NCBI GenBank assembly: GCA_964187785.1 | Contig: OZ076409.1 | Span: 62,684,001-62,748,000, forward strand | Reading direction: 5' to 3' | DNA from: Amphiscolops sp. MND2022 | Lineage: Eukaryota | Length of the DNA: 64,000 nt | Shown here: in pieces, positions 3,850 through 58,800 of the stretch | How positions within the stretch are numbered: the stretch's first letter is position 1 | Layout: each line of letters opens with the position of its first letter | The notes under the pieces: generated by a model | What the model was told of the DNA's origin: nothing | Database searches by the model: none | The model's input: the letters and a program-made list of their open reading frames with translations, nothing else | Made by a program: the position numbers and the translations under genes

Positions 3850-3981
3850 CATTCACCTCGGAGGGCCAAAATGGATATTGCAGGTGTGATAAAAGAAAAT
3901 GTGCCCCCTTGCACGATGGGCAATCTGACCCCAACCGAGGTCTGCAACAAGGTCACTATTCCGGAGCAGAACAGCAGCGAA
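3850..3981 (-). CDS. SLC23/NCS2 nucleobase-ascorbate transporter, internal exon
   Basis: Encodes SLLFCSGIVTLLQTSVGVRLPIVQGGTFSFITPAISILALRGEW (SLC23 G.RLP.VQG..F.F motif). Acceptor CCTTAG|, donor |GTTAGT. Confidence 0.9.
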
Positions 3982-4546
3982 CTAAGGTCAAGAGGAGTGT
4001 TGAATGTTGAATTGTTCAATTATAGCACTAAATGCTGCAAAGCTAATTCTTTTTCTGTATTGAATGACTGACGGTTCTTTTAAATTAGAGCATCTATAGT
4101 GCTGAGAGAAATATGGAACTTAGGAGTGAGTTTTCCGTGCAAATTGCAAATTGATCATAAAATCATGTTACATTGATTCTACAAACTTCTTCAGAAAACA
4201 GCATTATAAACTAAATGAGATTTCGAAAACTTTTTTCAGATTTGCTGACTTCAACGAAGTTCAGTACTTTTTGAGTTGTCATACTTTTAAATTCAAATCA
4301 TTGTGCGTTATTATGTTCCATTTTCTTTCATAGGCCTAGAACACTCCAGAATTGTAAATCAACTATACGAGAGCAACTAAAGTTTATACTTCATGTCCTG
4401 AAGCTTCAAAATTGGTTTAAGCCATGAAAACTATTGAAAGTTAGACTTGGACAATCCGAATAAAATTTTGACATCAAAAATTTGATAAAATGCAGCACAT
4501 TTGTTTTTTGCTATCATTTTGAGATTTTTTTTAAAATTCAACACCC

Positions 4547-4717
4547 CTGATAAGTTTAGATAGCGCAATTGAGTTGTCAACAATACACAAATGCTCAGAA
4601 AGCACATACGGTATAGACACTGTAGCTCCTAACATTGTTAGGTAATGTTGAATGCCAAGAAGGACGGCTAAGTACCATGGTGGATTTTGTTCGATGCTGT
4701 AGAGAAGCTTCGAATCA
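4547..4717 (-). CDS. SLC23/NCS2 nucleobase-ascorbate transporter, TM1 exon
   Basis: Encodes DSKLLYSIEQNPPWYLAVLLGIQHYLTMLGATVSIPYVLSEHLC..SKLI (PPW and QH signature). Begins after acceptor TTTAG at 4718, or at a slightly upstream in-frame ATG (MKFSDSK). The 3' boundary needs a non-canonical donor (see findings). Confidence 0.88.
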
Positions 4718-4969
4718 CTAAACTTCATTTCATATGAGCAAAACTTTTGCTTACGCAACGGTGAAGGCATTTTTTGAATCAAAAGTGTGACTAAAGTTTA
4801 TGAGATCTGAACAAAATTACTAAAAACCAAACTGGTGCCAAACTTACAAAGCAATTTGAAGACTAAATATTGGCTTTGTTCATGCACGAACGTGTTGAAG
4901 CAAGCTTGTTCCAATTATTGTTCGTAAAGGCGTGTATAAATACTTCAGAGAAAATATAATGGTTATCAA

Positions 4970-5536: not shown

Positions 5537-7376
5537 CAGGGCCCGGATTTTCATGCGTAAAAAATATGCCAAATATGCGTAAAAACATGCGTAAAAAATC
5601 CTAAAATATGCGTAAAAATATGCGTAAAAATTTATTGGTTTTCATACACAGTATTATACCAATAGACACATAAATGGTGTTTCAAGTTTTCAATGGTAAG
5701 TGACATTCTTTGTGGAGTTTGAATTTGTCCCATTTCTGAGAAAACTCTCTCTATATCGGCAGAAACCAGGGGTGCATATCGGTAAATTGGAGCATCTAGT
5801 GGTGGCACATCAGAACTGACTCTCTCTCCTCTCAGAATTTTTGCAAAATCTTGCAAAATTTTAAAATCAGGATTTCGGGTTAAAACAGCATCGAGTTTCT
5901 CTTTATAGTTGTCGCCTTGTACGTTGACAATAACTTTCTCCAAAATAACAAACTGATCACACAACGACAGTCGTCCCTGTAACTTCGTAATGGCCTCTGG
6001 TAAAAAATCGAAAGATGCAACTAAAAATGCCATTTCTTGCATGAGCGCGTTGTCCATGAGGTCCAAAATTTTCGTGATTTCTGAATTATTGGGTTCTTCA
6101 CTTCCCAAGTGAATCAGAAATTGTTGAAATTCGGCAAAATACTTGGCGTAATAAAACACTGCAATTAGCCACGAAGACCATCTGGTGATAACAGGCACAG
6201 GCGGTAAGGGCAACCCTGTCAATTCTCGGAATAATCGTTGTCTGCGACTACAATTGCAGAATAATTTTGCCACCTTCGATATGAAAAAATCAGTAGCAGA
6301 ATTTGTGGATCGAACATTTTCTGCAAGCCGATTTAAACCGTGGGCTAGACAGGTAATGTGTAGCAGTTTCGGGAATAAGCCTTTTAACAGCTTGCCTGCT
6401 TTAAGCATGTAACTGGCACCATCTGATACAAATAAACGAAATTTTGAATAGTCCATCTCGTCAAAAATCGAGCAAAGACTCGAATTAACTATTTGGTTTA
6501 TGGCTACAGCATCCGTTTTCTCAGTCTCAGCAAGATTAAAAAGCATTGGTGGCTTTAATTCGTTGTCTAAAACTCCAATTAAAACACCAACCAAAAATCT
6601 ACCTGCGGGGTCTGTCGCTTCGTCTACCATAATGTAGTAATTTTTCCCAGTAACCGCCTCTTTAATTGCTGATATAACTTTATTGAACTGTTTCGGCAAA
6701 TAATTCTTTCGAAGTGTAGACTCGTCTGGAGCTGCCTGGCCCGACCATGTCTCCAACAGGGATTTTACTTTTCGACATTGAAGTTTGTGAAATGGAATAG
6801 CTGCTGAGGTAAATGCTTCAGTAATATGATCAAAGAATTTGTTAGAAGTTTCATCCGAAAACTTAAGCGCATCCTGTCTCTTTGCATTTAATGATAACTG
6901 CCTTTTATGCCTGTCGCTATCTATATGCTGGTGTACTCGAAAATTAATGTTCGAAGCTGAATAATCGAAGCCATTAACACATAACTTGCAAACAATTTTG
7001 TTACTCGATTGCTCGTAATTCCAGTTTTGCATACCACCAGGCAATGTCTTCACATAGTCAGAACCGTGCAATTTGTGTTTTGGCATCTTGGACAAATGCA
7101 CAGTAAGCAAGATCAAATGGCAATACAATACTGTAAACACTGAGAACGAATAAAGCAGTGCCAGACAGACAGGCACCACATAACCGCAATGTTTGCTCAC
7201 TGAAATCTGTCACACTCACATACACATTCCTGAAAGTAAATTGTCACTGCAGTCCAATTCCTTGTCAATTTTGGCTAAATATGCGTTAAGTTCATGAAAA
7301 TATGCGCAAAAATAAATTTAGGCCAAATATGCGTAAAAACATGCGTTATGAACTTCTCATATAAATCCGGGCCCTG
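5537..7376 (-). mobile_element. Full-length, apparently intact hAT-superfamily DNA transposon (1840 bp)
   Basis: Perfect 14-bp TIRs CAGGGCCCGGATTT; perfect 8-bp TSD ATTGTCTC (5529-5536, 7377-7384); subterminal ATGCGTAAAAA repeats at both ends. Confidence 0.95.
5632..7086 (-). CDS. hAT transposase (CGGBP1/DUF659-like), about 484 aa from the ATG at 7086
   Basis: Uninterrupted ORF with N-terminal CKLC..H....H zinc finger, DEATD, SDGASYM, CLAHGLN (CxxH), TRWSS and SADIERVFS. Confidence 0.9.
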   Translation of the reverse strand: MPKHKLHGSDYVKTLPGGMQNWNYEQSSNKIVCKLCVNGFDYSASNINFRVHQHIDSDRHKRQLSLNAKRQDALKFSDETSNKFFDHITEAFTSAAIPFHKLQCRKVKSLLETWSGQAAPDESTLRKNYLPKQFNKVISAIKEAVTGKNYYIMVDEATDPAGRFLVGVLIGVLDNELKPPMLFNLAETEKTDAVAINQIVNSSLCSIFDEMDYSKFRLFVSDGASYMLKAGKLLKGLFPKLLHITCLAHGLNRLAENVRSTNSATDFFISKVAKLFCNCSRRQRLFRELTGLPLPPVPVITRWSSWLIAVFYYAKYFAEFQQFLIHLGSEEPNNSEITKILDLMDNALMQEMAFLVASFDFLPEAITKLQGRLSLCDQFVILEKVIVNVQGDNYKEKLDAVLTRNPDFKILQDFAKILRGERVSSDVPPLDAPIYRYAPLVSADIERVFSEMGQIQTPQRMSLTIENLKHHLCVYWYNTVYENQ

Positions 7377-17069: not shown

Positions 17070-20000
17070 CTGGAACAATACAATATTAATGTTCAGTTGC
17101 AACAACAATATTTACGGGTTAATTTTCCTCGGTATTTTACATAGGGAACGGCGGTTCAAATTGCACGACAATTATTGGAAGTTCAGTGAGAAAGATTAAT
17201 TAATTACAAAGCTATTATATGGATTTTTTGAAATTTTTTATTCCACAAAAGGTTTCTCTTTTTTTTTGTTTTCAATTATAAAAAGTCTTTTAAAGCCCAA
17301 AGTCTCCGTCCACCGTTTGAATATTTTTGGCAGTGAGATTTTGAGAACTAATTCTTGAACTTCGCGTCTTTTCATTTCAAGTGGGGCATTGATTACTGCC
17401 GTTCCCGGGTTGTTTAATTTAAACGACAACGTTTCAGTGCACAGTCCTAATTTTACATCTTCTAAATGAAGATAACAGTCATTCAAAGACGAGAACAAAC
17501 CTTGAGAACTTCCTCGATGTCATGCATGTGATGTTCACTTTGTTTGACCATGGAAAAACTTTTGTTGGTGATCAATCTTGTCTCTTTAAGCAGTTCTTTG
17601 AAATTGTGTTTGGCTCGCATGTACGCTGTTTCCTTCCAGTTGTCGAACTCCCTTTCACGTCTGCGGTCACTGGACGAAAACTTCTCGTATCTAGGGTCGT
17701 CTTTGATTTTCCTGCGAGCGTCTCTCCAATTGGTTGTGAATGAAATTCCTTCTGATTGGTCGAGTAGTTCACGATATTGCTGTTTTCGTTTTTCACCTAG
17801 TTGTTCAATGTGTTCGTTGAAAAGAGTTTCTTTGTCATCTCTAGTGAGACCCCCATTGGAATCCTCGTCTTCCAAACCCCCTCCACTCCACCTGTGGTCT
17901 TTCTTCATCAACCTCCGGCCTGCTTTCCACGTCATTTCCGCGTCCTTGATCTTGAAACGAACATTTTAGAATTTTTAATAGGCTTCACAAAAACAAAAGC
18001 ACTACTCAGTCAATCATCAGGAAGCAACTAATCGATTAAGAAGAGTCGAATGAAATGAATACACTAATGAAAGATAACATGGCTGATGTTAAACATTCCC
18101 ACAAAAGGCTTTTCGGTAAGAGTATCTTAGTCGGAAGCACGTTTCCTGAGTTTTTGGACGAATTTAGAACTTTAGTACAAAGCTTTCGATAGCATTATTT
18201 GTAAAATAAAGAATTGCAATATACCAATGAATATCACAATAAATTTGAATTACAGTACACTATTCATGGACATAGAGCAGGAAAGTTCGAACGAGTCAAC
18301 TAAACAACTACAAGTATCACAGAATTTCATTTTCCGCCAAACGCACATGGAAAATGTACAATTGAAAATATAAAAAACCCATACGGGGCTCAGTAATATT
18401 TCTGCTTTAGGCTGAAGATTTCTCGAAGCATTCAATAGAAGTCAAGGAAGGGTCAATATGAAAAACATGTGTTTATTCACTAGTATCGAGAACATTGATT
18501 CATTTATGCCAACCCTGCCCCTTCGCACATGTACAAAAGAGCGAAGGAGAAAGAAATGTGAGATTGGTAAATGGACTCACAATGTCGACTAGCAGTGCCT
18601 TGAATCTCTGCACTGATTCCTCTCTTCGATGTTGCAGCCTTTGTTCAGTGATGACCCGGTTGTTGAGTTCTCGCTCCTCAGCCACTGCTTGCTGTCTCGC
18701 ACGCATACTCTCTTCTATTCGCTTCCTCTTCTCCGCTTCCCTCACCTAAAAAAGTAATCATGATCAACTTAATTATAAGATAATGTTAGCCTTCCACGGC
18801 ATCTTCATCAAATCCAGTCGAAGACCATATTACTACTTTTCGAAGAAGATCTTTCAGAACTTTTTAAGGCCAAGATCAGCTAGGAATTGATATTGATGTC
18901 ATTGTAGAAAAAAACAACCCTGTTGCAAAATTTTGAATATTTCAAAAAATGATATTTTTAGGGCTTATGGGTCTAAAAAACACCAACTAGATGTACTTTA
19001 AAATTACACCCAAGAAATTTTAGACAATTAAGCATCTGTGTATTCGAAATCCATTTGTTTTGGAATATATGAAACGTTCTTCTGAATTAAACCATATGTG
19101 TTCCCTGGTTCATTATGCTAAGGATGACAATGTTCAAATAATTCCCGTCGAGGCCTATTAAAACTAGCAACTGCAAAAAAATGCTGCAAATGAAATTGAA
19201 ATTGTTTATCTATCGTTTCAATGAATGTTTTCGGGATAAAATACTTTTTTGAACAGTTGCTAACGGAAAACAATTAGTGGGGATATTTTGGCGAAGAAAA
19301 CCAATCTAACGTTTATTTCTAAAATAAAAATTCCACATATCTCAGAAACCATGGAAACTACCTCGCTAGGGTCCATCTTCTTCTTGACCTCGTCTATGTA
19401 CTCGTTGAACCACTGTTCCCTCAGAGTGGCAGAGGGCACCACTTTGTACCTGGAGTCGTCTTCTATCAACATGCGCAACTTGCTCCATCTCGCACTCTCG
19501 TCAAGGTAACTCTGCTCACTCAGCAGCGAGAAAAATTGATCTTTCATCTGAACACAACAAGTTTTTCATGTCTTTCAATACAACAGTTGGCAAAAAACAA
19601 ACACAAACAAAAAATCAGCGATTTTACACTTGAAAAACTGATCAAAAAGTTCCGTTGAAAAATCCATGAATTAACCCAGCATCCTTTGAATAAAATTCCA
19701 TTTAATGCATCTCTTATAGTTAACCAGTTGAAGGTTAGAATGAACAACCACATACATCCCAAGTCATTGCGTTTGCCAGATTGATTTTCTCACAGAAGTC
19801 TACAAATGCGCAAATTGGAAAATTTTCGAACATTCGGAAAAATAAAATATGAAGTCTGCAATTACAAACAAGGCGGGAACGGCACAAGTCGGCCCCTCAC
19901 TCAAAGTTCAAAAAGAGCAGTGTTTCAAATATTCAGGGCCAACTATTGAAACTTTTTCGAACGCTACCATTGAAACGCTTTTTCCGAGCCAAGAACTTCT

Positions 20001-23000
20001 TTAAAAAGATTTTTAAGACGGAATCAGATTTTTTTTCGAAAGTCGCATAGATACAGGTATTGAGAAAACTCTCATTAGTCCCACGAGACTAAAAAAATAT
20101 CCGAAGATGTCACCCTCAAGGCTTGGGCAACGAATTTCCTTAACAGAAAACCTCAAAGAAAAAAATTGAGTTTCCCAAAAAATGACTTCGATAAATCGCA
20201 TAAGGCCGAAAAATCTAAGGAGCCCTCTCTGCTCGCAAAACGCTGTTTTTGTTTTTAAAAATGAAGGGCAACTCGGTTAATTCAAAAAATAGGCCCATCC
20301 GGGCACACTATTATTTCTGCTTTAATCTTTCATTAATAAAAGAATCATATCTGGAATAATACACTCCTGTTTAATCATTATTAGGCGCAATTAATCAGTG
20401 TACCAGTTTACACCGTCTTTAAATCTCGGACTAAAGCAAATATAACTACTAAGCGTAGACGAAGTTTCGCATTCGCATTTGAATGCAGGCGAAGCTCTCG
20501 GCGAACGAATAATTAACACTCATTCGCTTCATCTCAATAACTCGACGTACGAAAGCATAATTACGAACATTCGCTCGCTTCATCTCAATGACGTTAGCGT
20601 ACGAATGCATTATTACAACTCGCTCGTTCCATCGCACGAGAATTGAATTGTCGTCGGCAGCTTGAGAAATTTAATGCTCATGCTTATGGTCACTGCCGAA
20701 CAAAATATCTGAACATTTCAGTATCACAATTGTATTTAATTGAATTTTACTGAAAAAAAGTTGACATCTTGAGGTTTCAATAATACTCCCGCTACCGCAG
20801 AAATAATAGAAGTTCAGAAAAGTCCCATAGTACCGATAAACACAAAGAGGGGACCCTTTGGCCTTTACTCAACTTTTGCAAGCATAAATTAAAACGTTTC
20901 GAAAAAGTCTCACAGTGCAGAAAAACGTAAAAGACGGGACACTTTGGGCTTTTTTTGGGTACCCTTTCGAAGCACATGAGATTGCTTTCTAGAAAAGCAG
21001 GAAGGCCTCGAGAAATTCTGTAAAAAGTGGACCTTTCAGTGTGAGGTCTGTGGTCTGGAGAAAAAAATAGTCACTGTAAGAGTCGAGCATTTTTTGTTTC
21101 ACAAAAAGCGCCGACTAAAAATACTGTTCCATAGTACTGTTAATCGGTACTTTTCCCCACTTTCCCACTTTCCACTAAAGATTTAAAGGATAAAATAATT
21201 TTTACAATGTTTCCAATAAATTTAATGAGGATTACTCATAAATCTCAAAATGATTCAGACGAACATCGCATTCTCCAATTCGTTACTTTCAGAAAAGTCA
21301 CTATCTCGGTATCTATCAAATAGAAGTCTTCATGGCATTCGAGAATACACGATGAATCTGCAGTTCTGGGGATCATTCACAGAAAAGGCTACGATTTTAA
21401 TGAGCAGAAAATACTTTCAAAACACTGAGTGTATAGACGACTAACATTGGATAGCTTGGCTTTGGTTGACTGTTGTTCTTTGACTCTGAGTTGTGCGACG
21501 TACTCGTCAAACATCGATTCTCTTTCTCGGTTCTTCTCGATGGCCTTGAACCTCGCATCTTTATTCCAACCCTTCGCAGTCCACTCTGTGAACGTCATTC
21601 TGAAAAATATCACCAGCTAAAATTAACCCTCAATGAAAACAACATTAGAAAATTAACCACAATGGTCAATAGGAACGGTCACGAGAATCAGAAACAAGAC
21701 GGGAACGTCCCAAGTCGGCGCCATATCTTAGGCTCAAAAATATTCAAGGAACAACTATTGGAAAAATTTGGAAAAAAATTTTTTTTTCAAAAAAAAAATT
21801 TGATTTTTTTTTTCGAAAAAAAAGTATTTTTTAGGTCGCACAATGCCGAAAAACTCAAAAAGAGGCCATTCAGGCTCATTCAACGTTTTCTACAAACCGA
21901 AAACTTCAAAAAAATTCAAGGGGGTACCCTTTGATAAATTTCGAAAATTTTCGAAAAAAGTCGCATAGTGCCGACTAAAAACCCAAAGGGGGGACCCTTT
22001 GGTCTCACATGTACTTTTGGAAGCATTAAAAAATTTATGGTTTAGTGCGAGAATCGAACCCACGCTCTCCGGCTGGGTCGAAGATGGAAGATGAACAAAT
22101 ATGAAAGATGAACAAAAATTGTAAGAAAAGTGGACCACTCAGAGTGAGATTGTCAACTGAAAAAAAAAACAAGACGGGAACGTCCCAAGTCGGCGCCATA
22201 TCTTAGGCTCAAAAATATTCAAGGAACAACTATTGTAAAAATTTGGAAAAAAAATTTTTCAAAAAAATTATTTTTGAAATTTTTTTTCGAAAAAAAAGTA
22301 TTTTTTAAGTCGCAAAATGCCGAAAAAAATCCAAAGGGGGGACCCTTTGGGCACGTCCGGTTGTGTATGTTTCCTTGAAAAAGTAAAAACTGAAAGGGTT
22401 GGAGTAAAGTTTGCCTTCTGCGCAGAATTGCAGAATTGTAAGAAAAGTGGACCACTCAGAGTGAGATTGTCAACTGAAAAAAACAAAAAAAAAAAAACTA
22501 CTCACTGTAAGAGTCGGGCTTTTTTCCTTAAGGGAAAAGGCGCCGACTAAAAAACTACTCACTGTAAGAGTCGGGCTTTTTTCCTTAAGGGAAAAGGCGC
22601 CGACTAAAAACAACTTGGTTGAAATTCGGGAAATTTTTCAAAAACTAGTTTTTAGTCGGCGCTTTTCTAGGGAAAAGTGCCCGACTCTTACAGTGGCTAG
22701 TTTTTTTTTCTTTTTTTTTTCGTCAGACTACAATCTCACTCTGATTGGGCCACTTTTCTTACAATCGAAACTACTAAAACTACTAGCATAAGAGGCCAAG
22801 TCCGGTCAGCGGAAATTAGTGCAAAAGGGTCCCCCTTTCATTTTTTACCTTTTTTACGTAACCTACAAAACCGGAAGAGACCAAAGGGTCCCCCTTTCAA
22901 TTTTTTTTCGGCACTGTGCGAAATTTTTTTCGAAAATTTTTTAAGGTCTCAAAAGAGTCCCCCCTTCGAGTTTTTTGATATTTTGCAACAAAATGTATGT

Positions 23001-26000
23001 TAATAAATCCCAAAGGGTCCCCCCTTTTCATTTTTCGGCACTATGCGACATTTTCGAAGTTTTTTCAAAAAAATTTTTTTCAAAAAAATTTTCAAATTTT
23101 ATTTTGTTCCCAGTCGGGAAACAGTGATTTTCCAGTCATATAGAGCATGAAAGGCACACTTTGGGTGTCTCCAAAGTGTTTTCAAAGCTTTTCATGAATA
23201 CGTCCTGAGCATATTTAGAAAACTTTGCGCTTCTTGAGCCTTAGATATAGCGCCGACTTTAGACGTTCCCGTCTTGTTAAATGTTAAAATCAATCATACG
23301 AATCCACACAGCATTCAAGAAATCCAACTGCGAAGTCATTGGATTTTGATGTGAGTTCCCTGAAGGCGCTTAAATATCCGTATACGAATTCCATCCGCTT
23401 TTTTGGAAGTCACCATCGCTCCCGAACTTCGGAAAATTGACTTCTATTCTGTGGTTGTCAATCGAATAGAGAAAGCAAAAAAATCTGCCTTATTGGCGAT
23501 TTCAGGTTAAAACTAACAATGCCAGAACCCTGAATTTGAGTGATGTGATTATCTTTCACAGGCCTCATTATTTAGTACTACCGTATATTATTGTCTTTCA
23601 AAGCAATAAAGCGCGTTGATTTATAGTTCAAAGAAGATGAACCGGTCATATTGGGTGTCCAGTAAAAGCTACAGAACAGACATTGCCAGCATCTTTCACA
23701 CCAACCTGCTTGTGATTCCAGACTGCTCCAACATAGCCCTGAACTCTTCTTTGCGTTCCTTCAACTTGTTGTTTCTTTCTTTTCTCTCTTCCTCTGCTTT
23801 GTTTCTCGTGTACACATCAAACACATTTTTCCTCTCTTTAGCATTCAACAGCGAGTAGCGATGATCAAACACTATTTTGGGAAGTTCTTTATCCCAGGTC
23901 GAATATGCAGACACCTAAGAAAACAAGTTTGGTTTTTAAAATGCTAATGTGAGGGGACATAAGGAGACAAGGTACTTGGTACTAACTGCAGAGTTATTTC
24001 GGTTTGACTTGTAATTTGAGGTTAAACTTTTAACACAAACTGAAATACGAAATAAAGATAGAAACTGGCTACCCTGACATAGTATTAGATAAAACTTTCA
24101 TCTCAGCATTTTAGAAAGGTTATAATGAGAGGCTCCAGTGCTATCAAGGTAATGTGAGCTATCGAGTAAATGAACGACCTGATCATCAAAAGATGAGGGA
24201 CAGAACTAACATTTCGTTCACCAAGCATTTCCATGAACTGTTGTTGACGCACTTCAAAAGGAATATTCGAACGCAGGTTTGCGACACGGGCTTCATCCAC
24301 TTGTTGAGCTACAGCTTCCGTTCTATGAGAAAAAAAATACGAAAGACAATATAAAATGCATTGAAATCTTAGTAGCTTCTGAATCTGGTAAATACCACAT
24401 TCACAGAGATTGTTTTGCTAAATACAGTAAACCTTGAAAACGCTAGGGTTAAGTTACTATCTAATATATCTAAGTGACACCAGGGAGCACAAATCAACCA
24501 ACTTTTTCTTTTTCGCAGCAGGGCTTTCGTCTTCTTCCTCTGTAGAAGCAGCAGTTGCGGGTTTGGCGCCATTAGCACCTGTAGCTGTTGCGTCCGCTGA
24601 GGCGGTGGTGGGAGCTAGAGCAGCTGGCAGTGTTTTGTGGGGAGGATTGGTGAGGATATTGTCAACAACCTTGTTGTTAACCAACTCCTAAAACAGCACA
24701 AAAAATTTCAAGCTACTGAAACAAAGACAAAGAAATCACATGCTATGTTTAGTCCTTAAAGCAGTAAATCAAAATAGAAAACGGCTTTTTTCAAGGATAA
24801 AAAGTGAAAAATGGAACTTCAGTGTTGTTTCAATAACGAAAACTTGTTTCAATAACGAAAGCAAGTTCCATCGAAATAATTCGTTATGAAATATCATCTT
24901 TTAGCTTTCCTTACAATTCTGTATAATCCCGGATTCTTAGTACTGTCGAAGCATTTCTCAGATACTGAAAAATTATTCATTAATAAAATTTATATTAAAC
25001 TGACCTCGGGTCTATGCCACACTGAAAGCTTAGATGACGGGTTGTAATAGAAGACCTTGTGATCGCCAGTGAACACCACACACCACGGAGAGTGAGGAAT
25101 GGGCTGTGAAGCAATTGGCTTGGCACGTGCTTTAGCTTCGGCTTCTTTCGCCTCCCGTTCTATCCTATCAGCTTCTTCCTTCTTCTTTTTCTCCTCCTCG
25201 ATTCTAGTCAACTCTTCAGCCTCCTTTTGCAGTTTTTCAGCATCTTCCACAGGTTTAGGTTTGGTCCAGGTAGTTTGCATGGTTCTTACATTGTACCAAT
25301 ACTTTTTACCATCAGGAGCGGTATTTTCAGCCCATTCGGTGCCGGGTAGGGGAGGTTTAGGGGCTTGTGGTCCGGCAAAGGGAGGGGCAGACGCTGGGGG
25401 TGCCCCTTGGGAAGGCACAGCCCCAGGCGGAGGGATGCCAGGTTGGAAATTAGGCGGTTGTTGCATTGGGGGAACATTTGGGGGAGGCCCTCTGGCAGGT
25501 GGAAACATACCGAAAGGCGGAACAGCTGGTCTAGAATAAAATTATTTCATACAATGAGCTATACCAGATTTATTTTTGAGAATACCTTTACCATCAGGCG
25601 ATAGATGGCGACATTCGAATGTTAAATTATTGGCTAGGCAATCATTCGGAAACAATTTCGTCAATGCTTATTTGTTAATGAATCGAACTTGAACACTTGA
25701 GTGGGACAAAGACCTGCTACAAATTTGACATATTAAACTCATTAATTTGAGTGTTATGCAATGAACTCAGAGACAACATATTGAGTCCAAAAACACTAAA
25801 CATTTAGTCTGACGACATTTAATAAATAACATCCGTCGGCAAATATAGTTTTTACGAAGTTCTATATATAATACAGTGCATAAAAGACTTAAATATGGCA
25901 TTTGAGCACGTTTTATACCGCCAATAGTCGACTGTCTGATATGTACGTGGGTCTGTGTAATTGTCTTAATTTGGGAATGAATGAGAACTACATTTCCGCA

Positions 26001-28525
26001 TGAAATTTAATGATATTCAGCGGAGATCCAACTAACCTAGGAGGCATATTGGGATTGTGGAAGCCCATCATATTGGGAGGAGGTATCATGGGTGGTTGAG
26101 CGGGTGGAGGGTTGAAGTTGCCAGGAGGAGGAGCCGACACTTGATGACTAACTGGCTGAGAACTAATGGCTGGGGATGACTGAGGAGGAGGTAGTTGCTG
26201 CGAATTCATATTATTCACTGGCATCGCATTGGCACCTACCAAAAAACACAAGTAGCACTACTTGTAACATGAGATGTGAATGACCTTCAGTTGAAAGTGC
26301 TAAACCTAGCCTAGGAAATGTCGAAACAAGCCAGGAACGGCATAAGTCGGCGCCCCGATTAAGGCTCAAAAATAGCAAAAGGACTTCAAAGTGTCAAGTA
26401 TTCTCTTCCACAGTGCCCGAAAAACCCAAAGGAGGACCGAACTGGCGCGCTAAAAGGGGCGACCCTTTGGGATTTTTTAACATCCATTGTTGCAAAAAAT
26501 TGGAGGGGACAATTTGGAGACAATAAAAAAATTTTAGGAAAAGTCTCATGAAAACGAAACAAGCCGGGACCGGCCCAAGTCGGCGCCATATCCAAGGCTC
26601 AAAAATAGCAAAGAGACTTCCAAGTGTCAAGTATTCTTTTACAGTACTCGAAAATCGAAAATTTTTCGAAATTTTTTTTTAAAAATTACATACTAAAAAA
26701 AATGGACCGAGTGGCGCGCCGGGGCCCGCTAGCGCGAGCCCCTGGCGCGCTAAAGTCTCACAATGCCGAAAAACTGAAAGGGGGGACCCTTTGAGGTTTT
26801 TCAACATCCATTCTGTCGCAAAACATGAAAAAATTGAAGAAAATTTTTTTTTTATTTTCGGGAAATCTCACAGTGCCGAAAAAAAACTGGAAGGAGGAAC
26901 CCTTTGGGATTTTTCAACATCCATTCTGTCGCAAAACATCAAAAAAATGCAGGGGGGACTCTTTGAGGAAAAAAATTCCGAAAAAAAATGTCTCGCAGTG
27001 CCGAAAAAAATTGAAAGGGGGGACTCTTTGGTCTTGCCCGGTATGGTATGTTACGCGGAAAAACAGGTAAAACCATTTTGGTCCAGTTCGCTAGGCCAAA
27101 TGGTGCAATTTGACACCATAATATTTTGTAGAACTTTTAAGAACTATTTTGGTCAGTTCCGTGTGGATAGAAAAAAAAGTCACTATAATAGTCGCGTTTC
27201 ACTTCATGAAGCGCCGACTAAAAATCAAAGGGGACCATTTAATCTCGTCCGGCATTGTATGTTACGCTATGAAAGGAACAACTATTATAGTACAGTTCCC
27301 TGGGTCAAATGGTACTATTTGGCCCCTTAAAATTTTGTATAATTCTGTAGAACTATTTGGGTCAGTTCACGTGGATTGAAAAAAGTCATTATAGTCGCGT
27401 TTCACCTCATGAAGGGCCGACTAAAAACGGCAAACATGGTCATTGAAGGTTGTTTCACAACTGTAATGTACTGAGATGGTTCGTTTTCCAGTAAACCTAG
27501 TAGCAACAAATTAACCAATATCAAGCCATGTTGAAGTAAAAATGAAGCGTTACTTCATAATGATTCGGACATCTAATCACTTTATTGGTCAATGGGACAA
27601 ATAACTCACGCATATAATAGATTAGCAGGGCGTGGATGCGAAAAACCACTTCTTAGATTGGTTTTTATTTGATATTTTACCTGTGGCTGCGATATTTGTA
27701 GCACCCATATTCGGCAAAGGGAGAGGCAAATTACTGCTTATGGTCAACACCATTTTCTTGAACTCCTCTTGCGTCATGACTGTGGCGTTCATGGGTCTGT
27801 TCCACTGCGTCTGTCTCGATTGTGCATGGTAATAGTACACCTTACCATTAGGGGCGGTCGTTTCTACCCAGATGTCGGGTGGCGGAATCTGCGGTCTGTT
27901 GGGGGGAGGCAGTGCTGTATTTGGAGGAGGAACAGCCGGCATATTTGGCCCAGCTCCCGTTGACAGAGGGGGTCGGTTGAAATTAAGCTGAGGAGGGGCT
28001 ACAATGCTACTGCCACTGTGAATGACATTGAAATTGGGAGGAGGCTGACTCACAGGCGGGAGATGTTGCAGATGGTGTGGAATAGGAGGACGGGGAGGGG
28101 GCATATTAGGAGGAACACCCATCTGAGGAGGTGCCTGGAACTGCTGTGGGGGTACGGGGGCTTTTGGCGGAGGCCCCGGGTGTACAACCATGGGAGGGAG
28201 CAATGATTGAGAATTTGATGCATCGGTGGAAGTTTCAGAGACGGAGGTAGGTGTAGCATCAGGAGCTCTTTGCAATGTTGGATCGGCAGGTTTTACAGAT
28301 GTTTTCCCAGCTAAAAAGACCCCAATATAAACTCCAAGTACTTATAAGTAGTTTTGCAGTACTTTTGACCACTGTTCGGACGGCAAAAAGACTATTGAGA
28401 AACTAAATTCTGGACTATTGCAGGATTTATGGTAGAGTGAATTGTAAAAACGTACAGTTAACAGGTTCGTCAGAACTTTCTGTGCTTGTTCCTCCCGCCG
28501 GTGACTGCTGCTTATCTATTTCCAT
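16878..28525 (-). CDS. TCERG1: Transcription elongation regulator 1 (CA150), 12 coding exons, 1025 aa
   Basis: Exons 28525-28456, 28310-27681, 26235-26037, 25530-25005, 24687-24503, 24322-24211, 23914-23706, 21599-21446, 19547-19362, 18745-18581, 17950-17501, 17069-16878. All GT-AG, phases compatible, 3078 nt total. Pro-rich N-terminus, three WW domains, FF repeats ([20 protein letters not shown]), C-terminal [15 protein letters not shown]. Confidence 0.93.
17501..17950 (-). CDS. TCERG1: TCERG1 exon (FF domains)
   Basis: [15 protein letters not shown]...[21 protein letters not shown]...VLK |GTTTGT. Confidence 0.92.
18581..18745 (-). CDS. TCERG1: TCERG1 exon
   Basis: [22 protein letters not shown]...[14 protein letters not shown]. 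Confidence 0.9.
19362..19547 (-). CDS. TCERG1: TCERG1 exon (FF domain)
   Basis: [16 protein letters not shown]...DDSRYKVV...REQWFNEYI...SE |GTAGTT. Confidence 0.9.
19867..21121 (-). mobile_element. Old HINE-like copy interrupted by another repeat
   Basis: Left end AACAAGGCGGGAACGGCACAAGTCGGC; right end AAAAAGCGCCGACTAAAA. Confidence 0.5.
20285..20740. repeat. Unclassified dispersed repeat rich in TTCGC/GCGAA motifs, copy 1
   Basis: Similar to 29655-30030 (shared AATATAACTACTAAGCGTAGACGAAGTTTCGC..TGAATGCAGGCGAAG). Confidence 0.75.
21446..21599 (-). CDS. TCERG1: TCERG1 exon (FF domain)
   Basis: [45 protein letters not shown]. Confidence 0.9.
21692..22609 (-). mobile_element. Nested/tandem HINE-like elements
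   Basis: Identical termini AACAAGACGGGAACGTCCCAAGTCGGCGCCATATC at about 21692 and 22168; the opposite terminus ..GGCGCCGACTAAAAA is tandemly duplicated (59-bp unit). Confidence 0.75.
22649..23278 (+). mobile_element. HINE-like element, same subfamily as 2271-2702
   Basis: TTTTTAGTCGGCGCTTTTCTAG ... GCGCCGACTTTAGACGTTCCCGTCTTGTT. Confidence 0.75.
23706..23914 (-). CDS. TCERG1: TCERG1 exon (FF1-FF2)
   Basis: [37 protein letters not shown].. |GTTGGT. Confidence 0.93.
24211..24322 (-). CDS. TCERG1: TCERG1 exon
   Basis: CATAG| ..[24 protein letters not shown]. Confidence 0.88.
24503..24687 (-). CDS. TCERG1: TCERG1 exon
   Basis: [24 protein letters not shown]...SPAAKKK |GTTGGT. Confidence 0.88.
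25005..25530 (-). CDS. TCERG1: TCERG1 exon (WW2, WW3)
   Basis: [25 protein letters not shown] and [27 protein letters not shown]. Confidence 0.93.
26037..26235 (-). CDS. TCERG1: TCERG1 exon (Pro-rich)
   Basis: GGTAG| ..ANAMPVNN...NMPPR |GTTAGT; phases fit both neighbours. Confidence 0.85.
26325..27427 (-). mobile_element. HINE-like element nested inside another HINE-like element
   Basis: Two AACAAGCC..AAGTCGGCGCC termini (about 26325 and 26557) and two ..GCCGACTAAAAA termini (about 27223 and 27427). Confidence 0.75.
27681..28310 (-). CDS. TCERG1: TCERG1 exon (Pro-rich, WW1)
   Basis: [34 protein letters not shown]| ... |GTAAAA. Confidence 0.92.
28456..28525 (-). CDS. TCERG1: TCERG1 exon (first confident coding exon)
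   Basis: TTTCAG|GACC ATG GAA ATA ... T|GTACGT; phase 1 fits the next exon. Confidence 0.75.
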
Positions 28526-33262: not shown

Positions 33263-33999
33263 AACAAGCCGGGACCGGCCCAAGTCGGCGCCATATCCAA
33301 GGCTCAAAAATAGCAAAAAGACTTCCAAGTGTCAAGTATTCTTTTAAAGTGCTCGAAAATCGAAAACTTTACGAAAAAAATTTTCGAAAAAATTACATAC
33401 TCAAAAAATGGACCAAGTGGCGCGCCGGGGCCCGATGGCGCGAGCCCCTGGCGCGCTGAAAGGGGGACACTTCCGAAATTGTCAACATTTTTGTCGCATT
33501 GAAGGGGAACCCTTTGGAGAAAAAACAAATTTTCGAATAAGTCTCACAATGCCGAAAAACTGAAAGGGGGACCCCGTTTGGGGTTTTTCAACATTCATTC
33601 TGTCGCAAAATATAAAAAAATTGAAGGGGGAAATTTTTATTTTCGGAAAAAATCTCACAGTGCCGAAAAAACTGAAAGGGGGACCCTTTGGGATTTTCCA
33701 ACATCCATTCTGTCGCAAAATAGCAAAAAAAATTGAAGGGGGGACACTTTGGCGGAAAAATTTTCCGGAAAAGTCTCGCAGAGCCGAAAAAAAATGGAAT
33801 GAGGGACCCTTTGGTCTCTCCGGGTATGGTACGCGGGAAAACAGGAAAAACTTTTTTGGTTCAGTTCGCTAGACCAAATATAGCAATTTGGTGCAATAAT
33901 ATTTTGTAGAACTTTCAAGAACTATTTTAGTCAGTTCGTGTGGATTGAAAAAAGCCACTATAACAGTCGCGTTTCACTTCATGAAGCGCCGACTAAAAA
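33263..33999 (-). mobile_element. HINE-like insertion in the RTE-like element
   Basis: AACAAGCCGGGACCGGCCCAAGTCGGCGCC ... GAAGCGCCGACTAAAAA. Confidence 0.8.
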
Positions 34000-36958
34000 T
34001 GCTGAAGAACATTCACGACTGAAAATCCCATGAATTACGACGCGAAGCGTTGCGGCGGGAACATCAAACAAGCACACCCATCACATACCCCAAGTTGCAC
34101 AAAAACAATTTCAAAAAACAATTATGCGCGACACAAAAGGTCGTGCCAGCCGGAAACTCAGACCCAACGCGACGCGACCACAGCAAGAGTCCATCGTTGC
34201 CGTTATCTCCCGTGCACGGAGTGTGGCTTATTGAAAGCAGCCACTAATATGGCCGGACCCAGACGAATCCGCTCGACAAGAGGAGGTGACGTACTTCCAG
34301 CAAGGAGGTGAAAGCCAAGACGAGACGAAGGGACCATACCGTCAGAGATTTTGCAGCATCCAAAACCTGTTTGCTGGACGAATGTTACCGTAAAGCACTT
34401 ACTGGCACCGGCTTCGATCAAAAAAAGTTCAATGAACGTTTAAAGTCCACAGGATTAGGAGACGAAACGATGCATGAATCGTTGAAAAGCGTGATAATAC
34501 GTTACAATTAGAGAAATAAGGTATTACTAAGTGTTGAAGTAGTCGTGAGTGATTTGCCAATGCTTCTGAGCATATCATCGTTGGAGGAAATAAAAACAAA
34601 CGTCGACGTTTTTAACACAAAGAACATGCTGGGTCAAACGTGATTAACATGGGTCACGTGACTAAAAAAATCAAACGGCCATTTTATGATCGCATTGAGA
34701 TATGGCTTCACTTACCAGTATGAATTTGTGATTGAACGACGATATATTAAAACTTCAAAAACAGTCCGGCCACTGAAGTAGCGAAAATCTAAAAATATAT
34801 ATCAAGGGACTCAGTTTGAAGTTTCACGGAAAATTGATTCGCTCTAGAAATGCAGTATGTGAAAAACGTGGACGAAAACCCGTGGCATCAGATGTGAATG
34901 ATAATGACCTTCACCAATGGACGGAAATCGGTGGAAACACCTGGTATCTGCATATAACTGATTCACTTTCTCGTTCCAGTGCTGGCTGCATCATTAAGTC
35001 CAAAGATCCGACAGCAACCATCACTGGGTTCAAACAATGCTGTATAGATAGCTGTGTTTGGTCCTCCAAAACGTGTCAGCAGACAACGGCGGTTATTTTG
35101 CCAATAAACACTTTATCAGTATGGACGAATTGTATAAAATAAGGGTTCTCAACTGCAGCGAAAGAACCGTAATTCGAAAAAAATTACATACTCAAAAAAA
35201 TGGCCCGAGTGGCGCGCCGGGGCCCGCTAGCGCGAGCCCTGGTGCGCTGAAAGGGGGACACTTCCGAAATGGTCAACATTTTTGTCGCAGTTGAAGGTGG
35301 AACCCTTTGGAGAAAAAACACATTTTTGAAAAAAAGTCTCAATGCCGAAAAACTGAAAGAGGGACCCTTTGGGATTTTTACACACCCAATCTGTTGTAAA
35401 AGATCAAAGAAATTGAAGGGGGACCTTTTGGAGAGAAAAAAATATATAAAAAGTCTCATAATGCCGAAAAACTGAAAGGGGGGACCCTTTGGGATTTTCC
35501 AACATCCATTCTGTCGTAAAATAGCAAAAAAAATTGAAGGGGGACCCTTTGGGGAAAAAATTTTCCGGAAAAGTCTCGCAGAGCCGAAAAAAAATTGGAA
35601 TGGGGGACCCTTTGGTCTCGCCGGGTATGGTACGCGGGAAAACAGGAAAAACTTTTTTGGTTCAGTTCGCTAGACCAAATATAGCAATTTGGTGCAATAA
35701 TATTTTGTAGAACTTTTAAGAACTATTTTAGTCAGTTCGTGTGGATTGAAAAAAGCCACTATAATAGTCGCGTTCACTTCATGAAGCGCCGACTAAAAAT
35801 GCTGAAGAACATTCACGACTGAAAATACCATGAATTACGACGCGAAGCGTTGCGGCGGGAACATCAAACAAGCACACCCATCACATACCCCAAGTTGCAC
35901 AAAAACAATTTCAAAAAACAATTATGCGCGACACAAAAGGTCGTGCCAGCCGGAAACTCAGACCCAACGCGACGCGACCACAGCAAGAGTCTATCGTTGC
36001 CGTTATCTCCCGTGCACGGAGTGTGGCTTATTGAAAGCAGCCACTAATATGGCCGGACCCAGACGAATCCGCTCGACAAGAGGAGGTGACGTACTTCCAG
36101 CAAGGAGGTGAAAGCCAAGACGAGACCAAGGGACCATACCGTCAGAGATTTTGCAGCATCCAAAACCTGTTTGCTGGACGAATGTTACCGTAAAGCACTT
36201 ACTGGCACCGGCTTCGATAAAAAAAAGTTCAACGAACGTTTAAAGTCCACAGGATTAGGAGACGACACAAGGCATGAATCGTTGAAAAGCGTGATAATAC
36301 GTTACAATTAGAGAAATAAGGTATTACTAAGTGTTGAAGTAGTCGTGAGTGATTTGCCAATGCTTCTGAGCATATAATCGTTGGAGGAAATAAAAAACGT
36401 CGACGTTTTTAACACAAAGAACATGCTGGGTCAAACGTGATTAACATGGGTCACGTGACTAAAAAAATCAAACGGCCATTTTATGATCGCATTGAGATAT
36501 GGCTTCACTTACCAGTATGAATTTGTGATTGAACGACGATATATTAAAACTTCAAAAACAGTCCGGCCACTGAAGTAGCGAAAATCTGAAAAAATATATA
36601 TCAAGGGACTCAAAGTTTCACGGAAAATTGATTTGCTCTAGAAATGCAGTATGTGAAAAACGTGGACGAAAACCCGTGGCATCAGATGTGAATGATAATG
36701 ACCTTCACCAATGGACGGAAATCGGTGGAAACACCTGGTATCTGCATATAATTGATTTAGTTTCTCGTTCCAGTGCTGGCTGCATCATTAAGTCCAAAGA
36801 TCCGACAGCAACCATCACTGGGTTCAAACAATGCCGTATAGATAGCTGTGTTTGGTCCTCCAAAACGTGTCAGCAGACAACGGCGGTTATTTTGCCAATA
36901 AACACTTCATCAGTATGGACGAATTGTATAAAATAAGGGTTCTCAACTGCAGCGAAAA
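33385..36958 (+). repeat. Tandem duplication of about 1.8 kb (two units, junction about 35165)
   Basis: ORFs 34030/35830 and 34308/36108 are near-identical at an offset of 1800. Confidence 0.9.
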
Positions 36959-37770
36959 GTCCGTGGATCATTGACATCTGTGAGCGCCACAATGCTATTG
37001 TATCAGAGACGTTCGATGAAGTATTGGCAAATTCCCGATACACACTAGAAACAGCTCTCTCGCAGTCACTGTTCGCTAAAAATTCGCGACACAACAACAG
37101 TTTCTCGCCGTACCAGATTGTGTTTGGTCGTAATCCAGGCAATTTATGTCTAAGCCCTGAATTGAACAACCTCTGATTTTGTTTCAAATTAACTGAACGC
37201 ATTGCGCAGCGCACAAAAGCGATATATTGGGTAAGAAACAACAGAAGATATCAGACGTGCGTTAAGAACAAATACCCGGAATAATGATCAAGGGAATATA
37301 GTTTTTTTACAAGCATGAAAAGGAAGAATGGAAAATTCCCAGAATTGTTATCTTCGTCAGGCATGGTTCTTACGTTGACAAAGCGGATATTTGACGTTTG
37401 AAACAGAAGGGATCAGAATATCTTTTCACTCCGGAGCCTGCATCACATCAAAACAATGCCCCGAACGCTTTGGAGAATGACAAATGTTTCAAACGAAAAG
37501 ACGCCAATTGATAAAATTCCATCTGTACGGCATCTAGTAAGATTTCTAACAAATAGAGAACAAATAAAGACACCGAACACACGGGAAAAATCATCAGTTC
37601 TCGTGGAACAACTTTCATCCCCTTAATGATGCTCCTTGATACAATTATTGAAAAAAATGTTCGCAGATCAAGGAGGATACAGTGAATTTTACGCTGATTT
37701 TACGTAAGAGGAGCGCCGTCCCATTTGGAGTTGCAACGGAAGAAAAAGAAATTAATACAACCGGAGCTTG
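34330..37770 (+). mobile_element. Decayed Copia-type (protease-integrase order) retroelement fragments, partly duplicated
   Basis: Integrase motifs WYLHIIDLVSRSSAG, SADNGGYFAN, AAKSPW..ICERHN, SPYQIVFGRNP, preceded by protease-like remnants. Confidence 0.65.
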
Positions 37771-55839: not shown

Positions 55840-58800
55840 CAATTGGTAACGCCACCAATTGTTGAGACCGGTTACAATCAGAAGTCACCAAGTAAGAGCA
55901 ACGGACCTATTGGATATGGTCGATTGAAAATATACCAGTACTTGGTACACTTTGGTTTAAAACAGATTCTCGTCTTTCATTCTGTTATAACTAGTTTTTC
56001 AGTGAGCAGCACTGCTAAGATACGACTACACAATGCGAGTCACGCAAAATGAAAAAACAAACTCGCTGAGGAAACAAAAATTAAAAACAAAATTCAATAA
56101 AATTCTACCTCGATAAAAGAATCAGTGGGTTTCATTGATTCCTTAAAAAGTAGCTAGCTCTTGTTAGTGGGTCACTTTTGTGGAGCTAGTCGAAATGCGA
56201 AAAAGTAAAAACGAAGTAACACAACAAATTAACCAAAGTGTCGGGTTGATAGCAGAGCAAAGACTACGGGTACTTCCAAGATGTTATTACCGGAACCTTT
56301 CACTGGCTCCAATGAAACTGAAAGCTACATAACTCATTTGAGCTGTTGGCTCAACTCCAAAAATAATGGAAACGAACGTAGAAGCGGGACAGAAACGAGG
56401 TTGAAAAAGATCAACGGCCGCACTATTTTCCACTTCGGCTCCAAAAATCAACAATTGATTTCTACCGTACCTTAACAGACCCTCGAAACGGTAGCTATGA
56501 TGAAACAGTGACGACTTTCAGAACTCATTACACTGAAAAACCTGTGGTGTTCCGGGGACGGCTAGCAAGACGAATACCCTACCCTTGAGAAAAACTAACT
56601 AATTTTTTGGGGAATTTGCAAGGTTTAATTTTGAAAGGGTACCCAGGGGAGTCGAATGAGATACGGAACAACTTGGTTGTGTGTGGCTTTTTGGAGGGGA
56701 TCCACAGCAGTCAAGTTTGACTTGATTTGAAAAAACCTAGTTGATACGGAACTAACTATTGAGCGGATACTAGAGAAAGCACTGTCACGAGAAATGAGGA
56801 TGAAGAAAATGAACCCAGAGTTGCTGTGCTACAACCTGACAACGCAGAGACCTATTTGCTCTGTGGATCAACTTGTTGAGTCTTTGTCACTCTCACGTCA
56901 TTCGCGAAACGACAATCGCAAAGGAAATTCAGAGAGAAAGAATTTCGGAAGAAGTAGCTCCGGCGATTGTTATGCAAGCAGAGGTTTTGGGGATCGGGAA
57001 AGAAACGGAAGAGGTAGAGAGATGAATAGAAACCCAAGATTCAAGACCCTCACTCCAGGAAGCTCCCCGGGACTTTAGGGAAGATCGTATTCTCGAAGGA
57101 GGTTTCCAGTAACTGATCGAGAGGTGGGATTCCGAGATAGATGTTGTCGTATCTGCGGGCATAATTGATACTGGGCGAGAGATTGCAAAAATTGTTTCAA
57201 GTGTGGTAGTTCACAGAGTTTCAAAAAAGATTGTCTGTTTTCAAACTAAAACAGGCTAATGTAGAAATGTCCTCGCATTTGCCTAACTGTAACATGGCCA
57301 TATTGGAAGTAACAGCCAACTAGAACACAGAGAAAACTCAAGTTTTTTACTTGACATTCCTCATACGAGGGAAATGACGAAGACACTAGTAGACAGTGGA
57401 AGTAGCGTCTCAATAATCGATTGGTTGTTCCTAAACACACTGGGTTTCAAATGAAAAATGGAAAGTTACAGTGGAAAATTTTTAACAGCAAACAAAACAC
57501 ACCTAACAGTGAAAAGAAAAGCAGAGCTGATTGTGCAGTTACAAAAGTTTTCGACCGAGTTTCGAGTTGGTTTTCTGATATCATCAATGGACATTTTTGA
57601 TTGATTTTTGAGACTGGATTTTCTCACAGAACTAGATTGTATTTAGTATATTAAACGGAAACATTTTTTCTACGGGAAGCTTTTGAAGACATTGGAATTG
57701 GAGTCAAGCATGCAAAACACTGGTACCATGTTTTTAATTGTCAGCTCAACACAAAGTATACCTTCGATAAGCCAAAAACTGCCCCAATGTGAAGTACGGG
57801 ACGAACAAGGAAAACGTGTAAAAAGTTTCCAAGGATTAGTGAATCCAATAGAATCATACCAGGAGGCAACAGGGTTATGGGTAGCACAGTCACTGGTGAA
57901 AAACAGTGAAAGAATTTGTTGGGTACAACTTTTAAAAATCCACGACGAGGATATTGTAATGTACAAAAGCTCCCGGTTCGGGAATTTGGTTGAAACGGAA
58001 CTTGAGCAACTAGTTTTTTCACTTCAAGCAAAAAAATGAAGTTTCATTTCACTGAAAGTTTCAACTTTGAAAAACACGTAAACCTTTACAGTATTCGTTT
58101 GACATGATCAATTGGACGCGGTAAAAAGTCTGTGCCAAAAGTACGAGAAAAATTGTTCAAAAAACTTGAATGTTTTAGGATTCAACAAACAAATAAAACA
58201 TCATATCAAGCTCAAACAAACGCTAAGCCGTATTGTTGAGCGTATGGAAACATGAGTTTGGACAAACAAAAGGATTAGCGGAAGCTGATCTAATAACACC
58301 AACCCATTCGGACTGGGCAGCACCCAGTATTTTGGTTCCAAAAAAAAGACGTACTGTCGTAGACTACAGTGGACTCAACAAACAACTAGAGAAGACATGT
58401 TGGCCACTGTGTAGAATGAACGATGTGATTGATTCCCTTGAAGGGAACATTTTTCTCGGGTATTGACATGACATAGGGATATTTTCAAATGGCTCTGAAA
58501 GGGGATGTTACAGTTGTTTTTATTAAAGACAGTCAGAATCTTACCGTCTTCATCACGCCTGTCGCCCTCTACAAATGGAAAGGTTTTCCATGGGACTCGC
58601 TTCTGCGAAAAGGGGTTTTTCAACACTTGATGGAGCTGCTTTTCAGTGGTTTGCCCTACGAAGTAGCGCTTGTTTACAAAGATAACCTTATAAGGTTAGG
58701 TAAAAACTTGCTCTTGTTAGTGGGTCACTTTTGTGGAGCTAGTTGAAATGCGAAAAAGTAAAAACGAAGTAACACAACAAATTAACTAAAGTGTCGGGTT

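Follow-up and report, generated by a model that had tools for sequence, protein, structure and literature searches.

The window, a stretch of 64,000 nucleotides (G000:C1:62684001-62748000) of a 1.07-Gb acoel genome, contains the first two coding exons of an SLC23 gene on its minus strand. Exon 1 ends in ..ATC AG at 4547 and exon 2 begins at 3981 (coordinates rechecked); the intron between them, 4546-3982, is 565 nt long, lies in phase 2 and reads GGGTGT..CCTTAG. Recognised by its ends, intron 1 is, as far as the sequence tells, an old insertion with a terminal inverted repeat (TIR) at either end. The features, in the direction of transcription, are as follows.

4547..4770, minus strand: SLC23 coding exon 1, from Met to ..ATC AG, its final CAG apparently supplied by the transposon end
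4550..4557, minus strand: likely first copy of the target-site duplication (TSD), AAACTTAT, exonic; assigned from the 8-bp TSD of family members
4536..4549, minus strand: left TIR, CAGGGGTGTTGAAT, lying across the junction of exon 1 and intron 1; identical to the ends of TSD-flanked elements
4541..4546, minus strand: predicted GG donor, CAG/GGGTGT, from junction enumeration and U1 pairing
3982..4546, minus strand: SLC23 intron 1, apparent old transposon relic, from junction enumeration and TIR matches
4196..4309, no strand assigned: piece of about 110 bp of another old dispersed repeat, inside intron 1, matching 7 other places at 71-76%
3992..4005, minus strand: right TIR, ATTCAACACTCCTC, 12/14 to the complement of the left arm
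3982..3991, minus strand: 10-nt stretch from the far TIR to the exon, ending in the TAG acceptor; probable decayed second TSD copy plus host AG, where 11 nt are expected
3850..3981, minus strand: SLC23 coding exon 2, adjoined by a canonical GTTAGT donor

Intron 2 (14,537 nt) runs out of the window, and the remaining exons, the C-terminal ones among them, are present 11-19 kb below it. Introns 2-4 are GT-AG, and +5G/+6T occur in three of the four other SLC23 donors. The five exons joined give 457 amino acids without a stop, with 70% identity to P0122, and the closest relative of the third exon is the SLC23 protein of the acoel Convolutriloba macropyga (66%). The Convolutriloba orthologue (P0002/P0122) has two alternative N-terminal regions over TM1-3, one of which is found here; no alternative N-terminal SLC23 exons were detected in the window or the 20 kb below it, and exon 1 as a query found no homologue among longer proteins. 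A paralogue on C4 is without an intron at the intron-1 position. A PF00860 match on a 14-kb contig (L004/L008, G000:C532) cannot be aligned to animal SLC23 proteins and is possibly a contaminant.

Joined at the GG, the two exons read KLISSLLFCSG, which aligns without a gap to the C. macropyga isoforms KLISSVLFCSG and QLISSILFCSG (pattern KLISS[IV]LFCSG). Against chain 8jew, residue 73 of exon 1 corresponds to SVCT1 residue 82 and residue 3 of exon 2 to residue 87, a spacing that calls for four residues in between, exactly those given by the GG join. Every frame-keeping canonical junction, and every junction near the proposed one, was scored against the orthologue. The GG-AG join obtained the top score of 354, equalled by four slid placements that encode an identical protein; among these five placements, only 4546-3982 starts with G and ends with AG. 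The GC-AG, GT-AG and GT-TG readings ranked below it, and the canonical joins cost 6-8 residues of TM2: GC4564-AG3982 loses 6 (score 315), and GT4544 requires AG3956 and loses 8 (score 293). Placing an AT..AC intron at 4551-3987 also avoids a gap (352), but ATCAGG, with which that intron would start, departs from the consensus ATATCC of U12-type AT-AC introns. The U1 5' end as read from the genome forms six Watson-Crick pairs and one wobble with CAG/GGGUGU, as compared with four and two at GT4544. A first-pass annotation of this DNA had claimed that a gapless join forces an intron GGGTGT..CCTTAG and that use of the nearest GT, at 4544, would delete much of TM2; the orthologue score and the SVCT1 residue count bear out the former, and the eight residues lost with AG3956 the latter.

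Transposon ends at SLC23 and in the genome

Both ends of intron 1 match CAGGGGTGTTCAAT, the consensus of 78 element ends, a motif with 836 matches as compared with 6 for the reversed control. The left TIR is identical to the ends of L021, L024, L036, L041 and L046, among others. The estimated chance of a match this good is 5e-9 for the left end, taken at a fixed site, and 4e-5 for the right. These two TIR matches constitute the evidence from which a transposon origin at SLC23 is proposed: the interior of the intron gave no significant match among 167 element sequences, the second TSD copy is unrecognisable in register (1/8), and the offset from the far TIR to the exon is 10 rather than 11, as it also is in PIG-U, DEG/ENaC and three more candidates. 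SLC23 is the sole GG case found with a GGGTGT-type end, and no second exonic GG case with the exact GGGTGT-type end was found among young copies.

The elements start with CAG (C in 77, A in 77 and G in 76 of 78 ends) and carry four Gs at TIR positions 3-6 in 71-78 of 78 ends, counts that include a search pattern for the left end that itself demanded CAGGGG at one end per element. TSD-flanked elements are mostly 150-1,250 bp long, and many of their TSD pairs match at 7-8/8 positions. The 13-mer AGGGGTGTTGAAT had 30 matches, its control 11, with a chance estimate of about 28; the count is near chance and its value came from reading the loci, where about 10 of the 30 proved to be ends of elements with inverted repeats and 8-bp direct repeats. 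Transposase-like frames lie behind the same TIR in L065, L101 and L372 (L065 and L101 share 40% identity), with DGW, CxxH, (T/D)RW and PTSNIxER-like motifs that we take to be those of hAT transposases. The family is called hAT-like on the strength of these motifs, the 8-bp TSD and the initial CAG. The transposase-like frames had no Pfam or PDB match and no significant match to the hAT frame in the window, and a phage search with such a frame returned nothing. Intronic copies sharing the terminal G-to-C change were also considered; in 30 of 60 loci, the partner end occurred only at SLC23 and in one non-exonic copy, and the idea was dropped.

A complete-looking hAT element with another TIR, CAGGGCCCGG, and a perfect 8-bp duplication, GAGACAAT, lies at 5537-7376 on the minus strand, some 770 bp upstream of the start codon of SLC23. 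Its 525-aa open frame has a DUF659 match and a weak hAT dimerisation match.

Candidate sister introns with GG, GC and GA donors

A genome search for the same start with an inverted partner, suggested in the first-pass annotation, turned up both TIR-bounded elements and candidate sister introns with the GG geometry. The sister end 13-mer CAGGGATGTTGAA (CAGGGATGTT) has 104 matches (control, 34), of which 70 were read; in 31 of these loci a TIR-like far end is followed 5-14 nt later by an AG, and joining at CAG/GG gives open frames of at least 45 residues on both sides. Shifted or opposite-strand anchors satisfied the same geometry in 34 of 420 cases and young-type ends in 0 of 35. The offset from TIR to AG has its mode at 11 (11 of the 31 cases). 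Because the search was lenient (the best of many partners was taken, with a far TIR of at least 9/13), chance accounts for part of the 31, with about 6 expected. Pfam matches on both sides were obtained in only 6 of the 31, five with the same family and one with adjacent domains of DNA ligase IV, and six loci (L482, L486, L465, L434, L435, L420) have canonical alternatives that alter only 2 codons. An initial screen at offset 11, which required a strict match of the left end and covered 50 of 71 loci, gave no convincing gene. The GG geometry surfaced only after the left end was relaxed, and most of the cases then seen, GC and GA donors included, bear the sister end CAGGGATGTT. The GG route in AG-ending targets (30 loci and 20 of 213 matches) yielded no exonic case, one repeat-borne copy being dominant. 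Roughly 38 such introns are predicted for the CAGGGATGTTGAA 13-mer. The exact 13-mer was present in only one of the four GG cases detected by way of the far end, so the total may, by rough estimate, exceed a hundred.

Several individual genes carry the argument. In PIG-U, Pfam positions 2-52 and 53-184 are contiguous at the GG join, and an empty site is provided by P0275 (91-98% identical), one 458-aa sequence that reads SPYQGSIF, as does the join. The gene call P0125, 100% identical, starts only past the intron, and other gene models here are likely cut at such introns; the P0275 and P0125 records do not state how the genes were called. In DNA ligase IV the flanking residues correspond to human residues 455 and 459, and the join supplies exactly the three residues in between, without a gap; the TSD matches at 6/8 and the nearest canonical alternative changes 9 codons. 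Positions 2-140 and 151-211 of ABC2_membrane are consistent with a GG join, and for the GG insert of a Kv channel (L115) no canonical junction that keeps the frame lies within 30 nt. Across 19 offset-11 introns, the TSD remnants match at 77 of 152 bases; shuffling the partners gives 40, and 77 was attained in 0 of 20,000 shuffles. A TSD filter had first brought up three of the 19 (L387, L389, L395), and the remaining 16 give 60/128. The TIR ends are common to about 30 candidate sites at unrelated gene positions; at SLC23 the ends only are shared. Taken together, it is likely, judging from these sequences, that dozens of genes carry hAT-type inserts in which the TIR supplies a GG donor.

The same geometry occurs with GC donors in a myosin head (Pfam positions 2-43 and 45-84), L383 and L395, and with a GA donor in the long frame of L389. 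At the myosin-head intron (L387 1016-1411, G000:C11:32.41 Mb), the left TIR reads C instead of the consensus G at +2, possibly a GG-to-GC change. In the candidate GA-AG intron (L389 642-1413, G000:C12:29.39 Mb) the left TIR departs from its partner by G>A at +2, and no canonical junction within 30 nt would keep the frame.

Young copies in AGG-ending targets could be excised exactly as AG/GC..AG/G. Among TSD-supported readings collapsed by target, at least 40 open codons on both sides were found in 9 of 26 AGG-ending targets and in 4 of 95 others, where two of the four are reverse readings of AGG cases and AGG sites had been deliberately sampled (70 of 99 matches). The BBS5 gene spans Pfam positions 66-132 and 133-172 across a GC-AG insert, and relatives of a USP16/45-like gene (P0123, P0124) are gapless across the insert site; a C2HC zinc-finger gene and a spectrin-repeat gene are further examples. 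Young GC-type copies share interiors (L045 with L041 and L049). Two near-identical BBS5 copies (L272 and L273; G000:C5:67.48 and 67.65 Mb) both contain the insert and represent either a duplication or an uncollapsed haplotype. A recent insert with a perfect TSD, removable as GC-AG, is seen in L215 (G000:C2:10.73 Mb); its host gene is short and looks LTO1/YAE1-like by eye, with no matching Pfam match. A multi-copy frame at L182 4750-5735 (G000:C1:35.43 Mb), BEN-domain-like by eye and without a Pfam match, has spread together with the MITE, which forms a likely GC-AG intron in it (copies include L220, L223, L260, L275 and L295).

A proposed route of exact removal and its alternatives

By far the most probable reading is that SLC23 intron 1, lying between two hAT-type TIRs, is a GG-AG intron that the ordinary U2 spliceosome excises. 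From the sequence we infer the splicing of the RNA at GG, its execution by U1 and U2 and the order of events at SLC23. An element would insert into a coding exon and duplicate eight bases. Its end, CAG-GG(G/A)TGT, would mimic a U1 site at -3..-1, +1, +5 and +6, missing only the T at +2, and the GGATGT subfamily end would also fit at +3; the first CAG of the TIR would serve as the exon end favoured by U1, and the following GG(A/G)TGT as the donor. The C-rich far TIR likely acts as pyrimidine tract and branch region; the right TIR at SLC23 likely doubles in this way, the branch being the part presumed. A host NAG located right past the duplicated target would be used as acceptor, and the excised stretch would comprise the element together with the second target copy and this NAG. 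The CAG of the TIR would then stand in for the NAG, with the protein restored exactly and the mRNA length regained, and we propose that such insertions survive because of this exact restoration. The interior and the second target copy would decay later. For AGG-ending targets the same family would follow the GC-AG route.

The first-pass annotation had described a 13-bp stem closing the intron, and had suggested a non-canonical intron that was either structure-guided or transposon-born (Introner-like). The stem (4548-4536 with 4005-3993, one G-U, 11 nt before the acceptor) is recovered with pair probabilities of 0.78-1.0 in a 685-nt fold. A TIR family and a geometry recurring genome-wide now argue for the transposon origin, with splicing as GG-AG the predicted consequence. 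The SLC23 stem is more than chance because both of its arms match the ends of a repeat family. Guidance by the stem, which would join the ends either within a spliceosome or outside it as in the nonconventional introns of Euglena, appears unlikely. TIR-paired introns are described for euglenids in the accessible text of PMC11282704, the SLC23 stem has a probability of about 1.0, and the far TIR seems better kept than the neighbouring TSD copy, though it was selected for. Among 24 sister GG introns hand-picked from the 31, however, stem probability ranges from 0 to 0.99, being at least 0.73 in 13 and no higher than 0.16 in 7, which suggests that the stem is probably a by-product of the TIRs; it is found in non-exonic copies too, and it would cover the donor and thus the U1-binding site. 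Stable end-pairing in all members and lack of a spliceosomal consensus, as in Euglenid-type introns, are not what was observed. Instead, AG precedes the donor, every junction fits +1 G, +5 G and +6 T, the acceptor is YAG in 22 of the 24, and GC and GA variants occur in the same geometry, as expected of a U2-type GG intron read by U1. A helping role for the stem is conceivable.

Use of GT4544, which lies inside the TIR, has the appeal of a normal donor. It would be combined with a TG acceptor at 3989, adding three residues, or with AG3956; a weak upstream GC is a further variant. Human TG acceptors are reported (PMC2374985). We regard this as very improbable, as TM2 residues would be gained or lost with lower orthologue scores, U1 pairs less well at GT4544 than at GG4546, and LIG4, PIG-U and Kv have no near canonical option that preserves the protein.

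It is equally improbable that the inserts are left unspliced, SLC23 and the other genes being disrupted alleles or pseudogenes. The second SLC23 gene on C4 speaks for this reading. Against it, the flanking exons are all intact while the insert interior and the second TSD copy have decayed; LIG4, PIG-U and BBS5, which are among the interrupted genes, are conserved; and an AG that restores the frame recurs at a fixed offset much more often than in the null.

One base change would turn the GG into a normal GT donor. That the run of Gs contains a sequencing or assembly error, or that T>G at +2 is a mutation private to this gene, is nevertheless extremely unlikely, since the four Gs belong to the conserved first six bases (CAGGGG) of the transposon end, a firmer ground than the one on which a homopolymer error had earlier been discounted, and since variant records of other GG loci retain the read-through. 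Two of these, P0280 and P0282, with few residue changes, keep the read-through into the TIR, and hence these GG sites are not errors of one assembly. An exact look-up of 10 proteins found 4, and two exon-1 read-through frames were absent.

No U1 5' end fitted to GG was seen among 20 of 23 U1 matches read. At least 21 U1 genes exceed the cut-off (L130-L149), many of them on C12 and a few with other 5' changes. Three U1 genes read ACTAACCTG and would pair with the GTTAGT donors of SLC23.

Relation to known intron-generating elements

Like MITEs of the hAT superfamily (Ac/Ds-like), the present elements have an 8-bp TSD and a short TIR starting with CAG, and are non-coding beside transposase-like copies. 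Splicing of Ds is typically imprecise, with codons added or removed, whereas inserts of the present family could be removed exactly.

Introners carry one splice site and co-opt the other from the target or flanking exon, with several frames per family, according to the accessible text of 10.1101/2022.06.06.494994, PMC9860276, PMC12130899 and 10.1101/2020.10.14.339549. The same arrangement is seen here: the ends are shared at unrelated sites, empty sites exist (PIG-U, USP, the SLC23 paralogue), one site is apparently carried and the other co-opted, several frames occur, and the frame is kept. In the portions available of these papers, Polarella class 12 introners form a GC donor from the last G of the TSD and the first C of the element, which is the GC-AG route proposed here. 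The 5' sites named there are GT, GC, GA and AT, with GG not among them; the present candidate introns differ in their predicted GG donor, in that the first three bases of the element turn exonic in place of the host NAG, and in their acoel host. In the searched part of the PMC12130899 supplement, Symsagittifera, Convolutriloba, Hofstenia and Acoela were not found, and in that of PMC9860276 Hofstenia appears in the genome list only.

Human GG donors number 32 of 222,263 introns (quoted in PMC5714493). In the copepod Eurytemora affinis, 31 GA and 5 GG donors were counted among 297 (about 12% of introns, 10 genes), with no origin given (PMC5714493); a Eurytemora assembly is listed with introners in the accessible text of the introner papers. 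As here, these donors are G[AG] after an exonic AG, the U1 5' end is normal and automatic gene models are broken, and the introns are constitutive, lineage-specific and recently gained (PMC5714493), as the present ones would be. GA is dominant there, whereas GG dominates among the non-GC cases found here and the donor can be traced to a TIR with TSD remnants. Fritillaria borealis, likewise a marine animal, has lineage-specific non-canonical introns with TIRs, derived from MITEs, mostly AG-AC/AG-AT and accompanied by a changed spliceosome (available portions of PMC11282704 and PMC13326754); in contrast, the AG acceptor and +1 G are kept here, and GT-AG ends bound the other SLC23 introns. Non-canonical donors go unmentioned in the accessible text of two genome papers on xenacoelomorphs (PMC9911081, PMC11521371), and the literature searched, which covered few subscription papers, held no report of TIR-derived GG donors or acoel introners. 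Introners and copepod GG donors are each known, and the new link, likely on the sequence comparisons made here, is the origin of GG donors from transposon ends.

Animal introns very seldom begin with GG, and the origin of such donors had been unexplained in the cases where they abound; here the donor is traceable base by base to a transposon end. The acoel adds an animal lineage to the introner hosts. Matched GG, GC and GA donors from one family in the same geometry represent a natural test set for how strictly +2 is read, and could show whether transposon invasions loosen that reading. A broader scenario is conceivable, if doubtful: a hAT invasion would have given the acoel lineage at least 100 constitutive GG-AG introns in essential genes, its spliceosome would have become laxer at +2, with possible help from the pairing of the TIRs, its donors would drift from GG to GC or GA, and the copepod GA and GG donors would share this origin.

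Elsewhere in the window, a multi-exon gene with proline-rich, WW-like and FF-like stretches occupies about 17,400-28,400 on the minus strand; we take it to be TCERG1/CA150, and it showed no end of the TIR type. A nearly identical pair of units, about 1.8 kb apart, lies at about 33,500-37,300, and at about 56,600-63,900 a unit of about 2.55 kb with retroelement-like frames is repeated in tandem in three nearly identical copies.
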